Below are positions 51,058 to 59,479 of a DNA stretch of 64,000 bases, one piece after another. A program made the position numbers and the translations under genes. Numbering within the stretch: the first letter of the stretch is position 1; every line of letters begins with the position of its first letter. Source of the stretch: a virus; the IMG/VR virus record IMGVR_UViG_3300021256_000098; one strand, given 5' to 3'. The notes beneath the pieces are model-generated. The model was given only the letters and a program-made list of their open reading frames with translations, was not told the origin of the DNA and made no database searches.

Positions 51058-51080
51058 CTTCTGTGACATTATCACAGAAG
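51058..51080. promoter_or_regulatory. 23-bp palindromic motif, copy 1 (cttctgtgacattatcacagaag), in the leader of gene 51101
   Basis: 9-bp inverted arms with a 5-bp spacer. One of 6 copies in the window. Confidence 0.6.
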
Positions 51081-51100
51081 TTTGCAAAGAAAGGACTACT

Positions 51101-51628
51101 ATGATTGAAAGAAAATCAATAATTGCCTCTACCCTTGGCGTTCAAAATCATGGTGGCAGTGGTGGAGATGTAGATTTAAGTGAATACAGGAAATATGTAG
51201 ATCAAGATGTGATTGATGCGGCACTGACTGCGAAGGTGACGGCATTAGAAGATAAAGCCGAACGCTTTGTTGTACATTGTACTGCCTCTTCTATCCCGCC
51301 TTTTGGAGGAGCATTTGATATTGCTACTGATAAATCGTTCAATGATATATTATCTGCATACAACAGTAATAGAGAGGTATGCGCTATTTTGACGTCATCC
51401 GCAATGCAAGGTGTTGCATTCCTTACAGGCATTGCTCCGGATGCTGCTATATTTTACACTCTCATTACTTTAGGTTCGCAAAGCAATCTTATGTACTTAC
51501 TCGTTTGTATTAGTAACGATAAACCGTTTGGCGTATTGATGTCTGCAACATATGATGATACTGATATTTCTAATCGCGTTTCCGCACTGGAAACCGCGCT
51601 GACAGGACTAGACGAGGTGATCGGATGA
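51101..51628 (+). CDS. hypothetical (175 aa)
   Basis: ORF preceded by the palindromic motif. Confidence 0.45.
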   Translation: MIERKSIIASTLGVQNHGGSGGDVDLSEYRKYVDQDVIDAALTAKVTALEDKAERFVVHCTASSIPPFGGAFDIATDKSFNDILSAYNSNREVCAILTSSAMQGVAFLTGIAPDAAIFYTLITLGSQSNLMYLLVCISNDKPFGVLMSATYDDTDISNRVSALETALTGLDEVIG

Positions 51629-53136
51629 GTACATATGTTGAGCGTATTCAAGCGCAGATTGATAAAGCGAATACTGCAACGGGAAAAGATGATTCCACGC
51701 TGGTACAAGCCGTTCAATCGCTCGTCGACGGCTACGGTGCAGGCGGCGGCGATTCCGGGGCGGAAGATATGCTGAAAGGCTTGATCGAACGCTCTGCAAC
51801 GGAAATCACGATCCCAAACGGTGTGACGAGCATCGGGGATTATGGGTTTGCATATTATTCCGGCCTGACCAGCATCACGATCCCGAACAGCGTGACAAGC
51901 ATCGGGAGTAATGCGTTTTTTAACTGTGCAAAATTAGCTAGTATTACGATCCCGGGCAGTGTGAAAACCATCGGAACCTTCGCATTTCAAAGGTGTTCAC
52001 AACTTGCCAGCGTCACAATCCTGAACGGCGTGACGAGCATCAAGGATTATGCGTTTTACAACTGTGCAGAATTAGCTAGCATCACAATTCCGAACAGCGT
52101 GACAAGCATCGGGAGTAATGCGTTCAAGGGTATCAACGCGAACGCCGTAATCACTTGCAAATTCGCAGAAGGCGCGGTGTCAGGTGCGCCGTGGGGTGCG
52201 CCAGACACGGTTCAAATTATTTACGAACGACGTGTATATACTGTATATTTTTATAACGGTTCTACGCTGTTACAGACGGTTGAAGGAGTACAAGCAGGAG
52301 GAACGGCGACTTATACCGGGGAGACCCCGACAAGGACTGGCGTGGAGAACCCTGAGGACTATTCGTTCAGCGGATGGTCGCCGTCTAACACCAACATCCA
52401 GAGCAACACATCCTGCTATGCACAGTTCAATTATACTGGCGTGCCGGAGACCATTACGGATAGTTGGGACGACATCATCGCGGCGGTCAACAACGGGACC
52501 TATGCCAGCAAGTACAGCGTCGGAGACACCAAGCAAATCGACCTCGGCACGGAGGGTATCGTGGCTATGCAGATTGCGGCCATCGACACCGACGCGCTCG
52601 CCAGCGGCAGCGGAACGGCGGCCATCACATGGATTTCGCAGCAGCTTATCGCTACGAGCCATCGCATGAACCCGGCCAGAGCCGCAGACCCGGAGGATTC
52701 CTCCAAGTATCAGGAGGGTACGGGAACCATCGGCGGCTGGGAAAAGACGGAGATGCGGAGCTGGCTGAAAGAAACGGTCAAGCCGCTTATCCCGGCGAAC
52801 GTATTGGCAGCCATCAAGCCCGTAACGAAGTACAGCAGGATTTACGACACTTCCGGCAGCGCGGTGAACAACGTCACCAGCACGGAGGATGTATGGATTC
52901 CGTCGGCCAGAGAGGTCGGCTTCACCGGGTACGAGACAGAGGGACCGACCTACACCGGGCTGTTTACGGCCAATGCAGACCGTATCAAGAGCAAGACAGG
53001 CGCGTCCAGCGCCTTGTGGTGGCGGCTGCGGTCCGCTTCCGGAAGCGATACCTTCGGTAATGTGCATTCGGCCGGCTCCTATATCAGTTACAGCGCGTAC
53101 TACTCTGGCGCGGTGGTTCTCGGCTTCTGCATATAA
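51625..53136 (+). CDS. BspA-type leucine-rich-repeat protein with a Listeria-Bacteroides-type repeat and a GC-rich C-terminal domain (WWRLRS-containing)
   Basis: At least 4 LRR_5-like repeats (ITIPNSVTSIGSNAF...), YTVYFYNGS...GETPTR repeat. GC rises to ~60% in the last ~900 bp. Confidence 0.65.
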   Translation: MSTYVERIQAQIDKANTATGKDDSTLVQAVQSLVDGYGAGGGDSGAEDMLKGLIERSATEITIPNGVTSIGDYGFAYYSGLTSITIPNSVTSIGSNAFFNCAKLASITIPGSVKTIGTFAFQRCSQLASVTILNGVTSIKDYAFYNCAELASITIPNSVTSIGSNAFKGINANAVITCKFAEGAVSGAPWGAPDTVQIIYERRVYTVYFYNGSTLLQTVEGVQAGGTATYTGETPTRTGVENPEDYSFSGWSPSNTNIQSNTSCYAQFNYTGVPETITDSWDDIIAAVNNGTYASKYSVGDTKQIDLGTEGIVAMQIAAIDTDALASGSGTAAITWISQQLIATSHRMNPARAADPEDSSKYQEGTGTIGGWEKTEMRSWLKETVKPLIPANVLAAIKPVTKYSRIYDTSGSAVNNVTSTEDVWIPSAREVGFTGYETEGPTYTGLFTANADRIKSKTGASSALWWRLRSASGSDTFGNVHSAGSYISYSAYYSGAVVLGFCI

Positions 53137-53193
53137 TCCGCAAACCCCTAATCTGGCTCCCTTTGTGGGGCCAGATAGGATTTGTCGGCATCC

Positions 53194-53220
53194 TTTTTTT
53201 TTTTTTTTTTTTTTTTTTTT
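53194..53220. repeat. 27-nt poly-T homopolymer preceded by a 7-bp hairpin (atctggc...gccagat)
   Basis: Read directly from the sequence. Lies between the LRR gene and gene 53255. Confidence 0.9.
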
Positions 53221-53254
53221 GAGGGATAAAACATAATTTAAGGAGGATATTATC

Positions 53255-53578
53255 ATGAAATTGCAATTGATTCTTAAAGATAGAACAGTCATTGACATCG
53301 CGGAGGCTGGGTACACGAAGCATTTTGTCGTTACCTGCGCGGATGCGGATGCGTTCAAAGAAATCTGGGACAAGATGACGGACGAGAATCTGTCTGAGGT
53401 TCAGATCGCAGAAGATGGGAACACGATTCATACGATTGCCGGGATGACGCTGAACGGAACTCAGACGGTTAGCAATTCGGACGGCACGCTTACCGGACAT
53501 TTGTACATGGACGGCGGCGAGTATGTGGGGGATGAATACTCCGACGCTGGGCGAATTTTGCTTGGGGAGGAGGAATAA
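53255..53578 (+). CDS. hypothetical (107 aa), relatively GC-rich
   Basis: RBS aggagg. Confidence 0.4.
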   Translation: MKLQLILKDRTVIDIAEAGYTKHFVVTCADADAFKEIWDKMTDENLSEVQIAEDGNTIHTIAGMTLNGTQTVSNSDGTLTGHLYMDGGEYVGDEYSDAGRILLGEEE

Positions 53579-58311: not shown

Positions 58312-59336
58312 GTAGTAGACATAGAGATTTTAGTCAGGCTGCTCCTGTATTTAGAAACAACCCTTCATTCAAAGATAAGGTTGCTATGGCAACATCTAAA
58401 AAACAGGTGCCAGAGTCCGGCGAGGTGGCACGCATGATCCCGTTAGATGATATTGTCTTTTATCATAGAGAAACCTCCTTGAGTGACGGGGGAGAGCAGG
58501 TTGTATTTAAGGATTATGATTCTGCTAAACTCAACTATTTAGCTGACGATATTGAAACAAATGGATTATTAGAACCCATTACAGTGTTCCTGAATGAGAA
58601 TGGGAAATATGAGTGTTTAGCGGGAAAGCATCGGACAAAGGCTTCTCGTTTAGTTGCAGCCAAACATCCTGAACGTAATCAGATCATGGCAATTGTATTG
58701 CCATTAGAAAAAGTATCTGCCAATGAGTGGGCTTATGGTGACTTGGTATATGTGAATAGCAATATGTATCGCCGCAACTCGTTGTCTTTATCGGAATTAG
58801 GTATGGTATACGAAATGATGTTCCGAGCACAATCACATCAAGGGGTTAGAGGATCAAACCCAAACCAAGATATTGCAGATCGAATGCAGGACACTGTATC
58901 TCGCGTGAGGCAGTTACGAAATATTATTCCGGAGAAGATTATAACACAGTTTTTAGAGATGATAGATAAGAAATATATTGCTCTCACTACAGCCGCAGCC
59001 GAACTGTGCTATATAGACAAAGTACACCAAACATCTCTTTATCAGTGGGGAATGAGAACATATCAAGACGCTCCGACACAAGTTGAGCGGCGACTTGGGA
59101 GAACAATGACAAGAGAACATTTATCTGCACTGCGACAACTTATTGCTGAAAAGGGAGAGGAGTGTTCTTTAGCTGACGAGGATTTTGATAGTATTTTTCT
59201 TACTATACCGGTTAAAACATTTCAGTCTCCGAGAAAAAAGTTTTTACAACAACTCGTTCCGGCAGAAGCGTGGGAGAACGTAGAAGAATATTTGCGGATT
59301 GCTGTTGAAGAATATCAAAAAAATCACCAACAATAA
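58308..59336 (+). CDS. parB: ParB-N (ParB/Srx-fold) domain partition protein
   Basis: GLLEPITV...LAGKHRTKA motif. ATGA coupling to parA. Confidence 0.65.
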   Translation: MSSRHRDFSQAAPVFRNNPSFKDKVAMATSKKQVPESGEVARMIPLDDIVFYHRETSLSDGGEQVVFKDYDSAKLNYLADDIETNGLLEPITVFLNENGKYECLAGKHRTKASRLVAAKHPERNQIMAIVLPLEKVSANEWAYGDLVYVNSNMYRRNSLSLSELGMVYEMMFRAQSHQGVRGSNPNQDIADRMQDTVSRVRQLRNIIPEKIITQFLEMIDKKYIALTTAAAELCYIDKVHQTSLYQWGMRTYQDAPTQVERRLGRTMTREHLSALRQLIAEKGEECSLADEDFDSIFLTIPVKTFQSPRKKFLQQLVPAEAWENVEEYLRIAVEEYQKNHQQ

Positions 59337-59340
59337 TTTT

Positions 59341-59370
59341 AGAGCGAGGATAACCCCTCGCTCTATTTTG
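59341..59370 (+). terminator. intrinsic terminator (agagcgagg...cctcgctct + T-run)
   Basis: 9-bp stem followed by attttg. Confidence 0.6.
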
Positions 59371-59371
59371 C

Positions 59372-59400
59372 TTGACAAGTACATATATATATGTTATTAT
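59372..59400 (+). promoter_or_regulatory. sigma-A promoter TTGACA, 17 bp, TATTAT
   Basis: Spacing checked base by base. Confidence 0.6.
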
Positions 59401-59456
59401 AAAAGAGGATTTAACTAATACAAAATAAGCCTAACAAAAGTTTTTAACTAGCAACA

Positions 59457-59479
59457 CTTTTGCGACATTATCACAGAGG
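59457..59479. promoter_or_regulatory. palindromic motif, copy 6 (cttttgcgacattatcacagagg), overlapping the RBS of gene 59488
   Basis: Core tgcgacattatcacag conserved. Confidence 0.5.

Follow-up and report, generated by a model that had tools for sequence, protein, structure and literature searches.

Six palindromes around the replication and partition genes of a phage-plasmid: candidate ParB sites that resemble a Crp/Fnr-family operator

In plasmid RK2, the korA-incC-korB operon encodes a small repressor, a ParA and a ParB-family protein, and the last of these, KorB, acts both as centromere binder and as global silencer through 13-bp O_B sites, 12 over the plasmid, that lie at promoters as well as away from them. 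In mycobacteriophage L5, about 24 to 30 asymmetric 13-bp repressor sites, the stoperators, are distributed genome-wide and stop elongation in lysogens. In the sopC centromere of plasmid F, 43-bp units stand in tandem, each holding an inverted repeat of 16 bp (PMC3177203), and in the plasmid-prophage N15 four dispersed inverted repeat (IR) sites serve one ParB, SopB (PMC7205306). Here we analyze a stretch of 64,000 nucleotides of viral DNA (IMG/VR record IMGVR_UViG_3300021256_000098; the whole stretch is called the window below), which belongs to a phage-plasmid of ~108 kb and carries six copies of a palindrome around its lysis, replication (rep) and partition (par) genes. We propose, tentatively, that the ParB encoded by the element binds them.

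A search of the window with up to 3 mismatches allowed found exactly six copies of the palindrome (Table 1), at the positions listed in an earlier note on this DNA, and the number expected by chance from 100 dinucleotide shuffles was zero. A position-weight-matrix scan of both strands over the whole 64 kb gave the six copies 36 to 41 bits and the next best site 8 bits, and it revealed no weaker or degenerate copies elsewhere in the window. ENA assemblies labelled SHIW14-1_SAMN0214423x and related runs contain near-identical contigs, the longest of 108,841 bp; from the sample names only, we take these to come from sheep rumen. These sister contigs added ~18 kb of flanking DNA (~10 kb on the left, ~8 kb on the right), so that ~82 of the ~108 kb of the element were examined; the flanks held no further copy. 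Counting the tandem copies as one, four independent loci fall within 8.4 kb of the ~82 kb (p ~0.004 for random placement).

The repeat had been described as 9-bp arms around a 5-bp ATT-containing spacer. The palindrome itself stands, but its symmetry is better written as 10-1-10, TTCTGYGAYA-T-TRTCRCAGAA, within a full unit A-CTTCTGYGAYA-T-TRTCRCAGAAG-T whose flanking A...T lengthens the palindrome to 25 bp in five of the six copies. Departures from symmetry are transitions in every case, and copy 4 does carry the paired compensatory changes previously noticed (CcTCTG...CAGAgG). The two halves differ consistently: the left one usually reads TTCTGCGACA and the right one TTCTGTGATA, position 7 of the arm being C in 5/6 left halves and 0/6 right halves (Fisher p = 0.015). 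The central ATT has the same orientation in all six copies.

The placement of the copies also agrees with the earlier account. The distances from the ends of copies 1, 2 and 6 to the ATGs at 51101, 54057 and 59488 are 20, 24 and 8 nt (from their centres 32, 36 and 20 bp), and the short gaps that hold copies 1 and 2 separate co-directional genes; only the name endolysin for gene 54057 has to be softened to putative, given a Peptidase_C39_2 match of E = 2e-4 and no PHROG or NCBIfam match. Copies 3 to 5 (55031-55053, 55075-55097 and 55119-55141) stand in tandem, flanked on one side by the lysis operon's terminator-like hairpin and on the other by the stop codon of rep, a convergent gene; copy 5 ends one base ahead of that codon. 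Copy 6 begins 121 bp past the parB stop codon, where ~120 bp had been estimated, behind a terminator and the sigma-A-type promoter. The tandem-site pattern was absent from IMG/VR and was matched in JGI metagenomes only by eukaryote-like minisatellites, and blastn of the three-site array against PLSDB and INPHARED returned only noise.

Comparison of at least 11 variant contigs revealed that the sites are kept in all strains, save copy 2 in one of them (L083), and that copy 1 is present in every variant covering its position. The array spacing was 44/44, 41/44 or 44/42, with indels confined to the spacers. In one lineage an A->G change in copy 4 turns a C·A opposition into C-G and makes the palindrome perfect; two strains or contigs show an A->C change in the right arm of copy 6. 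In the most diverged lineage (L050/L082), where ParB is 93% identical and the parB-orf62 spacer ~78% identical, copy 6 is identical at 23/23 positions and divergence reaches right to its 5' edge; since the conserved block continues past copy 6 into orf62, this is modest evidence of selection. Intact sites despite spacer indels, the C-G variant and the diverged flank at copy 6 together suggest that it is the palindromes, and not the DNA around them, that are under selection. Strain L083 encodes the same putative endolysin behind different upstream cargo genes and without copy 2, homology resuming at the endolysin ribosome-binding site. Copy 2 thus travels with the G+C-richer cargo genes and is dispensable, and a dedicated lysis operator is unlikely, which weakens the late or lysis operator or antitermination role that had been offered as one explanation.

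Sites for recombination or cassette exchange were considered and rejected because the break points of the variable segment do not coincide with the palindromes: strain homology runs on for ~180 bp beyond copy 1 and returns ~260 bp ahead of copy 2, leaving the break points 180-260 bp from the sites. The strain-variable cargo block itself, between the holin gene and that of the putative endolysin (window 51625-53998; L073 7778-9759; L083 7909-9954), encodes a BspA-type leucine-rich repeat/DUF6273 protein and a CBM5_12 protein, has 51% G+C against 39% elsewhere and is probably a module for receptor binding or host interaction. In two gut phages, homologues of the CBM cargo gene have no adjoining palindrome.

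The six palindromes are most likely selected, protein-binding DNA sites tied to the plasmid-maintenance region, a conclusion much more secure than the identity of the binder. The general idea that the repeat is a site for a dimeric DNA-binding protein, selected for its symmetry, survives. Of the two parS-like options put forward before, ParB is the best single choice on anatomy and analogy, and the ribbon-helix-helix (RHH) protein loses ground because there is no copy at the RHH promoter. The palindromes would then be high-affinity sites for a two-fold symmetric helix-turn-helix (HTH) protein, most plausibly the element's own ParB, and serve as centromere and silencing sites, an assignment that we hold tentatively and place somewhat short of an even chance. 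The element encodes a complete ParA/ParB pair in cis, in which ParB has a ParB_N domain and a GxxRxxA (CTP-binding) box. Within the ~82 kb the palindrome is, as expected of parS, a short inverted repeat found near the par genes and the origin only, bracketing rep-oriV-par. Since Rep has its own iterons and the RHH protein its own TGAAT repeats, the palindromes are the only multi-copy candidate left for ParB. Three sites 41-44 bp apart with one more 121 bp past parB reproduce the anatomy of known centromeres, and three sites occupy short gaps between co-directional genes, one of them overlapping the ribosome-binding site of orf62.

We infer from this anatomy and from analogy that ParB is the binder and that binding would have roles in partition and in silencing. 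ParB dimers would load on the three-site array and on the single sites bracketing rep-oriV-RHH-parA-parB; ParA would move the partition complex so built, and the low-copy plasmid-prophage would be inherited. Bound or spreading ParB would probably also dampen read-through in the co-directional gaps, as KorB does in RK2 and SopB in N15.

Several observations weigh against ParB. Conservation spans 11-12 bp on each side of the centre and is in this respect more CRP-like, known ParB sites being 13-18 bp in length, and the consistent left/right asymmetry is not expected of a symmetric dimer. The palindrome is also the consensus of a Crp/Fnr-family operator, a match that would have to be a coincidence if ParB binds; by a rough estimate with a wide error, the chance of such a coincidence is ~1%. 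No relatives of ParB below 90% identity were found in 5.8 billion proteins, and in the variants (all at least 90% identical) both the recognition helix and the sites are essentially unchanged. Relatives of ParB, Rep and the putative endolysin were absent from IMG/VR; megablast and tblastn searches of GenBank phages and PLSDB gave only matches of up to 35% identity, the best one for ParB in a record resembling an integrative and conjugative element (ICE). In addition, a 47-bp imperfect inverted repeat (57259-57305, with 22-nt arms that are 77% complementary) lies between the AT-rich region of the origin and the par promoter and could be an alternative, single parS candidate, or else a bidirectional terminator.

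The resemblance to a Crp/Fnr operator emerged from a scan with the pattern YTCTGYGAYATTRTCRCAGAR of one genome per species (185,579 species). It returned 43 loci, mostly in gut or rumen Clostridia, against ~17 expected by chance in a back-of-envelope calculation. At least 18 of the 43 are intergenic perfect palindromes, TTCTGTGAYA-T-TRTCACAGAA, placed upstream of genes for thioredoxin, CoA-disulfide reductase (with rhodanese/TusA/DsrE domains), a short-chain dehydrogenase/reductase (SDR), a ferredoxin-like protein or a Crp/Fnr-family regulator, and a Crp/Fnr homologue is encoded within 8 kb at ten loci. The motif that the earlier note feared might be a generic chromosomal repeat does therefore occur in bacterial chromosomes, but as single regulatory sites and not as an abundant repeat. 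The clostridial regulator keeps the DNA-contact residues R180, E181 and R185 of E. coli CRP (AREVVTR vs SRETVGR in an alignment); this R-E-x-x-x-R pattern suits a TGTGA core. When loci were chosen by way of the protein instead of the motif, the DNA upstream of their trx, ferredoxin and CoA-disulfide reductase (CoADR) genes showed GTGAY-N3-RTCAC with TTCY flanks in about half of the half-sites. The family has at least 8000 matches in gut and rumen Clostridia.

The regulator has 218 aa and is linked to the 21-bp odd-centred operator TTCTGTGAYA-T-TRTCACAGAA (TGTGA-N5-TCACA) at loci L007-L049 (e.g. L029 1111-1131, L032 5688-5708 and L038 66-86) and L053-L060, and also at genes neighbouring superoxide dismutase (SOD); a literature search found no description of the protein or of its operator. 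On an Oscillospiraceae contig of a metagenome-assembled genome (MAG; SVTX01000067.1, L036 1-380), at least three tandem 128-bp units, each opening with the fully C-type palindrome CTCTGCGACATTGTCGCAGAA, stand at the contig end beside a Phd/ParE toxin-antitoxin pair and have no Rfam match. In Oscillibacter (L061/L062 2221-3657), 82 bp separate a prophage CHAP lysin gene from a co-oriented Crp/Fnr-family gene downstream of it, which could be a moron carried by the phage or may just mark the prophage border. Phage-borne Crp genes were sought in IMG/VR, where four contigs encode relatives, but these lie at contig ends beside recombinases, probably host flanks, and were discounted.

Except for a TGCGA core, the window sites look like consensus-strength operators of the Crp/Fnr family, copy 1 differing by one base from the L032 operator, and the six sites could be operators of a redox/thiol-stress regulator of this family, encoded by the host or by the remaining ~26 kb of the element. 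The regulator would form roadblocks ahead of the 175-aa gene, of the putative endolysin gene and of orf62, as well as between the lysis and rep modules, or would itself be titrated; either way, phage-plasmid behaviour would be coupled to the redox state of the host. We regard this explanation as possible but doubtful. The right half is TCACA in 6/6 copies, but the left half is TGCGA in 5/6, and these five of 12 half-sites contrast with TGTGA in 36/36 half-sites of the chromosomal regulon, even though the search pattern allowed C. A TGCGA core (T->C) defines the Sxy-dependent, cofactor-dependent CRP-S class of gamma-proteobacteria (PMC1635313). The centres of the single sites are too close to the ATGs (20-36 bp) for positions -41.5 or -61.5, chromosomal sites lying ~50-150 bp upstream, and these distances rule out CRP-type activation; nor is copy 6, ~50-70 bp downstream of its promoter, placed for promoter control. 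With a host regulator, the confinement to 8.4 kb around par/rep and the three sites in a gap between convergent genes would have no explanation; the ~82 kb contain no gene for a Crp-like protein, and the motif occurs at chance level in IMG/VR (6 single matches). In its fullest form, a phage-plasmid of rumen Clostridia would carry six host Crp/Fnr sites, one half of each weakened in CRP-S manner, and would sense redox stress of the host by a roadblock at the lysis-region genes and orf62, or would act as a decoy array, or else its sites might serve both ParB and the host regulator; this too seems to us an unlikely, though not negligible, account. The decoy variant would have the regulator titrated, and thioredoxin and CoA-disulfide reductase switched on, upon genome amplification. 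Rather less probable is that the sites are operators or stoperators of another regulator encoded by the element, orf62 or an immunity repressor outside the window, that would bind in the short intra-operon gaps and block elongating RNA polymerase in the plasmid-prophage state. All six copies have one orientation relative to transcription with the same left/right asymmetry, three of them lie between co-directional genes, and copy 6, within the orf62 leader, spans about +50 to +72 relative to a strong promoter; the product of orf62 is all-helical with a weak HTH-like fold. However, this product is an orphan whose model has low confidence and whose fold matches are not significant, other gene junctions in the 82 kb have no sites, unlike the genome-wide pattern of L5, copy 2 is dispensable, and the Crp-family operator match would again be a coincidence.

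Some other DNA transaction is an improbable explanation: the sites might be promoters or signals for the YonO-like polymerase encoded by the element, copy-control sites for Rep dimers, recombinase sites, or a fork barrier for unidirectional replication. The polymerase gene at 9911-12367 and the co-oriented sites just upstream of ribosome-binding sites speak for the first of these, but no copy precedes the structural-gene block at 14-50 kb. In P1 (incA) and F (incC), extra initiator sites lie beside rep, where the array abuts it here; a Rep-dimer operator was nevertheless rejected, as the similarity between palindrome and iteron is at shuffle level (40% of shuffles align as well), and there is no copy at the rep promoter. 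The role of Rep_3 iterons is filled by the separate array at 56903-57100. The window has genes for a resolvase and a tyrosine recombinase; against recombinase sites stand the strain-variable boundaries 180-260 bp away, and against a res-type site the single geometry shared by the three array sites, unlike res subsites. In favour of this group of explanations also counts that GC skew is positive on both sides of oriV, but beyond orientation nothing positive favours a fork barrier. We consider it very improbable that the copies act as RNA, by hairpins in plus-strand leaders or at the minus-strand 3' end of rep mRNA that would control translation, stability or termination. The predicted hairpins have energies of -5 to -15 kcal/mol, single copies scoring z = -1.6 to -2.9 and the array z = -5 to -10, the asymmetries are all transitions that yield G·U pairs or C·A mismatches, and copy 6 would sequester part of its Shine-Dalgarno sequence. 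Yet neither strand pairs consistently, the plus strand having a C·A mismatch in 5/6 copies and the minus strand C·A mismatches in copy 6; no transcription of the minus strand is known at copies 1, 2 and 6; and the identity with a DNA operator would be left unexplained. The argument made before against a simple terminator was right: no copy is followed by a U-tract on the plus strand, where 0/6 qualify as intrinsic terminators, and only copy 4 on the minus strand, which is followed by a T-run, was flagged as terminator-like. A known RNA family was rejected, as no relevant Rfam match was found at E <= 1 across 50000-60500, and so were IS200/IS605 end hairpins, as no similar sequence occurs near the TnpA/TnpB genes at 42.8-44.5 kb.

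Table 1. Palindrome copies and other features of the window
Feature	Position	Strand	Remarks
Copy 1, CTTCTGTGACATTATCACAGAAG	51058..51080	+	78-bp gap before 175-aa gene at 51101
Copy 2, CTTCTGCGATATTGTCACAGAAG	54010..54032	+	Starts 11 bp past CBM5_12 stop; 58-bp gap
Copies 3-5, three-site array	55031..55141	+	Unrelated spacers; spacing 44 and 44 bp
Copy 6, CTTTTGCGACATTATCACAGAGG	59457..59479	+	Leader of orf62; right arm overlaps Shine-Dalgarno sequence
YonO-like single-chain RNA polymerase, 818 aa	9911-12367	+	Pfam RdRP E = 3e-17; PHROG 8308 E = 4e-73
Putative endolysin	Gene from 54057	+	Pfam Peptidase_C39_2 E = 2e-4, below cutoff
Hairpin + T-run directly 3' of putative endolysin	54978..55010	+	Read by eye; without entry in terminator scan
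rep, Rep_3 (RepE-like) initiator	55142..56641	-	Pfam Rep3_N E = 1e-17; NCBIfam RepM, RepE below cutoff
rep promoter, perfect TTGACA-17-TATAAT (sigma-70-type)	56691-56663	-	Promoter scan
Plasmid origin	56770..57200		DnaA-box-like 9-mers, direct repeats and AT-rich stretch
par promoter	57365-57393	+	Flanked by TGAAT/ATTCA repeats (repeats read by eye)
RHH (Arc/CopG-like) protein, 48 aa, first par-operon gene	57414..57560	+	PHROG Arc-like repressor E = 6e-8
ParA, Walker-type ATPase, 253 aa, without N-terminal HTH	57550..58311	+	Pfam AAA_31 E = 7e-43; CbiA/ParA families
ParB-family protein, 342 aa	58308..59336	+	Pfam ParB_N E = 4e-6; GxxRxxA box (LAGKHRTKA)
Bidirectional terminator hairpin	59340-59365	+	Scan; stem conserved, loop changed in L050
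Strong sigma-A-type promoter, extended -10, TTGACA-17-TGnTATTAT	59372-59400	+	Promoter scan
orf62, orphan all-helical protein, possible small HTH regulator	59488..59676	+	Without family matches

The hairpin at 54978..55010 is likely the plus-strand terminator of the lysis operon. In the origin, DnaA-box-like 9-mers (TTATNCACA / TTATCAACA, 56770-56897) are followed by about eight direct repeats of 21 bp (GTTACAATYTCTCGCGAATCR, 56903-57100) and by an AT-rich stretch (57101-57200); since this is a textbook iteron origin, the 21-bp array is assigned to Rep. The TGAAT repeats at the par promoter are probably the operator of the RHH protein itself. ParA also matches NCBIfam ParA_partition (E = 3e-31, below cutoff), and its gene overlaps the start codon of parB. 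The best PDB match of ParB is H. pylori ParB (4umk, E = 1e-5) and its predicted HTH, assigned by eye, is DIADRMQDTVSRVRQLRNI; structure prediction without an alignment was unusable, with a predicted local distance difference test (pLDDT) score of 32. For orf62, AlphaFold2 gave a pLDDT of 66, the best Foldseek matches were homeodomain-like and not significant (E > 0.5), and the only relatives in 5.8 billion proteins were variants with at least 90% identity.

The phage side of the element comprises terminase, structural genes, an SPP1-type holin, the YonO-like RNA polymerase, an integrase and an HU-like protein. Polymerases of this type transcribe the late genes of SPbeta. As of 2017, the promoter that YonO recognises had yet to be determined (PMC5467207). 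Window positions 1-132 and 1395-1543 hold two distinct G+C-rich tandem repeats, each with a 44-bp period, the second within an open reading frame (1390-1686), in an element that otherwise has 39% G+C; they are not genome ends because sister contigs run past window position 1. Within the tail-gene region, an IS200/IS605-type pair at 42870-44503 consists of a TnpB/Cas12f-like gene (386 aa, minus strand) and a Y1 transposase gene (134 aa, plus strand). To the right of orf62, a protein with DUF7666 and pentapeptide repeats (60164-61141) is encoded by 15-bp tandem repeats (60412-60846), and the DUF7666 gene and its neighbours are swapped for other small genes in some strains (L071 vs L072/L083). 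At 61327-63695, an N-terminal fragment (94 aa) of a C5 cytosine methylase directly precedes a small serine recombinase (61638-62201), after which come two further methylase-like genes; the layout suggests that the recombinase splits or switches a methylase gene. Another ~7 kb on, a second resolvase is encoded (L093 17525-18214).

Phage-plasmids of strict anaerobes are almost unstudied, and this locus offers a compact map of one, from its origin and initiator sites to its partition genes and a candidate centromere. Should ParB bind the palindromes, they would be a Firmicute counterpart of the N15/RK2 pattern, in which partition sites double as gene-silencing sites. If a clostridial Crp/Fnr regulator does, a mobile element would be wired into the oxidative/thiol-stress circuit of its host, and the sites would provide a first handle on a widespread regulon with an unusual TGTGA-N5-TCACA operator.

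Compared with CRP operators, the palindromes share a 21-22 bp two-fold site with a TGTGA/TCACA core and show, in the left half of five copies, the T->C change that marks a weaker class of CRP sites (PMC1635313); however, the clostridial and window sites have an odd centre, TGTGA-N5-TCACA, whereas CRP sites have N6, and those of the window are too near to start codons for CRP-type activation. With the stoperators of L5 they have in common the short intra-operon gaps and one orientation relative to transcription, but they are six quasi-palindromes confined to 8.4 kb. The closer parallels are with plasmid centromeres. As in F sopC, there are tandem units of ~43-44 bp with one inverted repeat each near replication and partition genes; in F, each repeat is bound by a SopB dimer. 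The units number 3 here against 10-12 in F, their 41-44 bp spacers are unrelated, the palindrome is odd-centred and of 21-25 bp instead of 16 bp, the array lies beyond rep and not directly after parB, and its units are candidate ParB sites. RK2 has in common with this element the operon layout of small repressor, ParA and ParB and the dispersed palindromes, with the difference that no evidence of promoter-proximal sites or of a KorA-like partner, beyond the RHH gene, was found here. N15 resembles it as a plasmid-prophage with identical palindromes (IR1-IR4) scattered over several kb that include phage-gene regions (PMC7205306). The N15 sites, however, are perfect palindromes of 18 bp (GTGCGACC..GGTCGCAC) with no tandem cluster among them, and N15 SopA/SopB are of type Ia, whereas the ParA of this element is short and its operon starts with a separate RHH gene. 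On this comparison, the six palindromes most likely belong with the clustered-plus-dispersed centromere and operator sites known from F, N15 and RK2.

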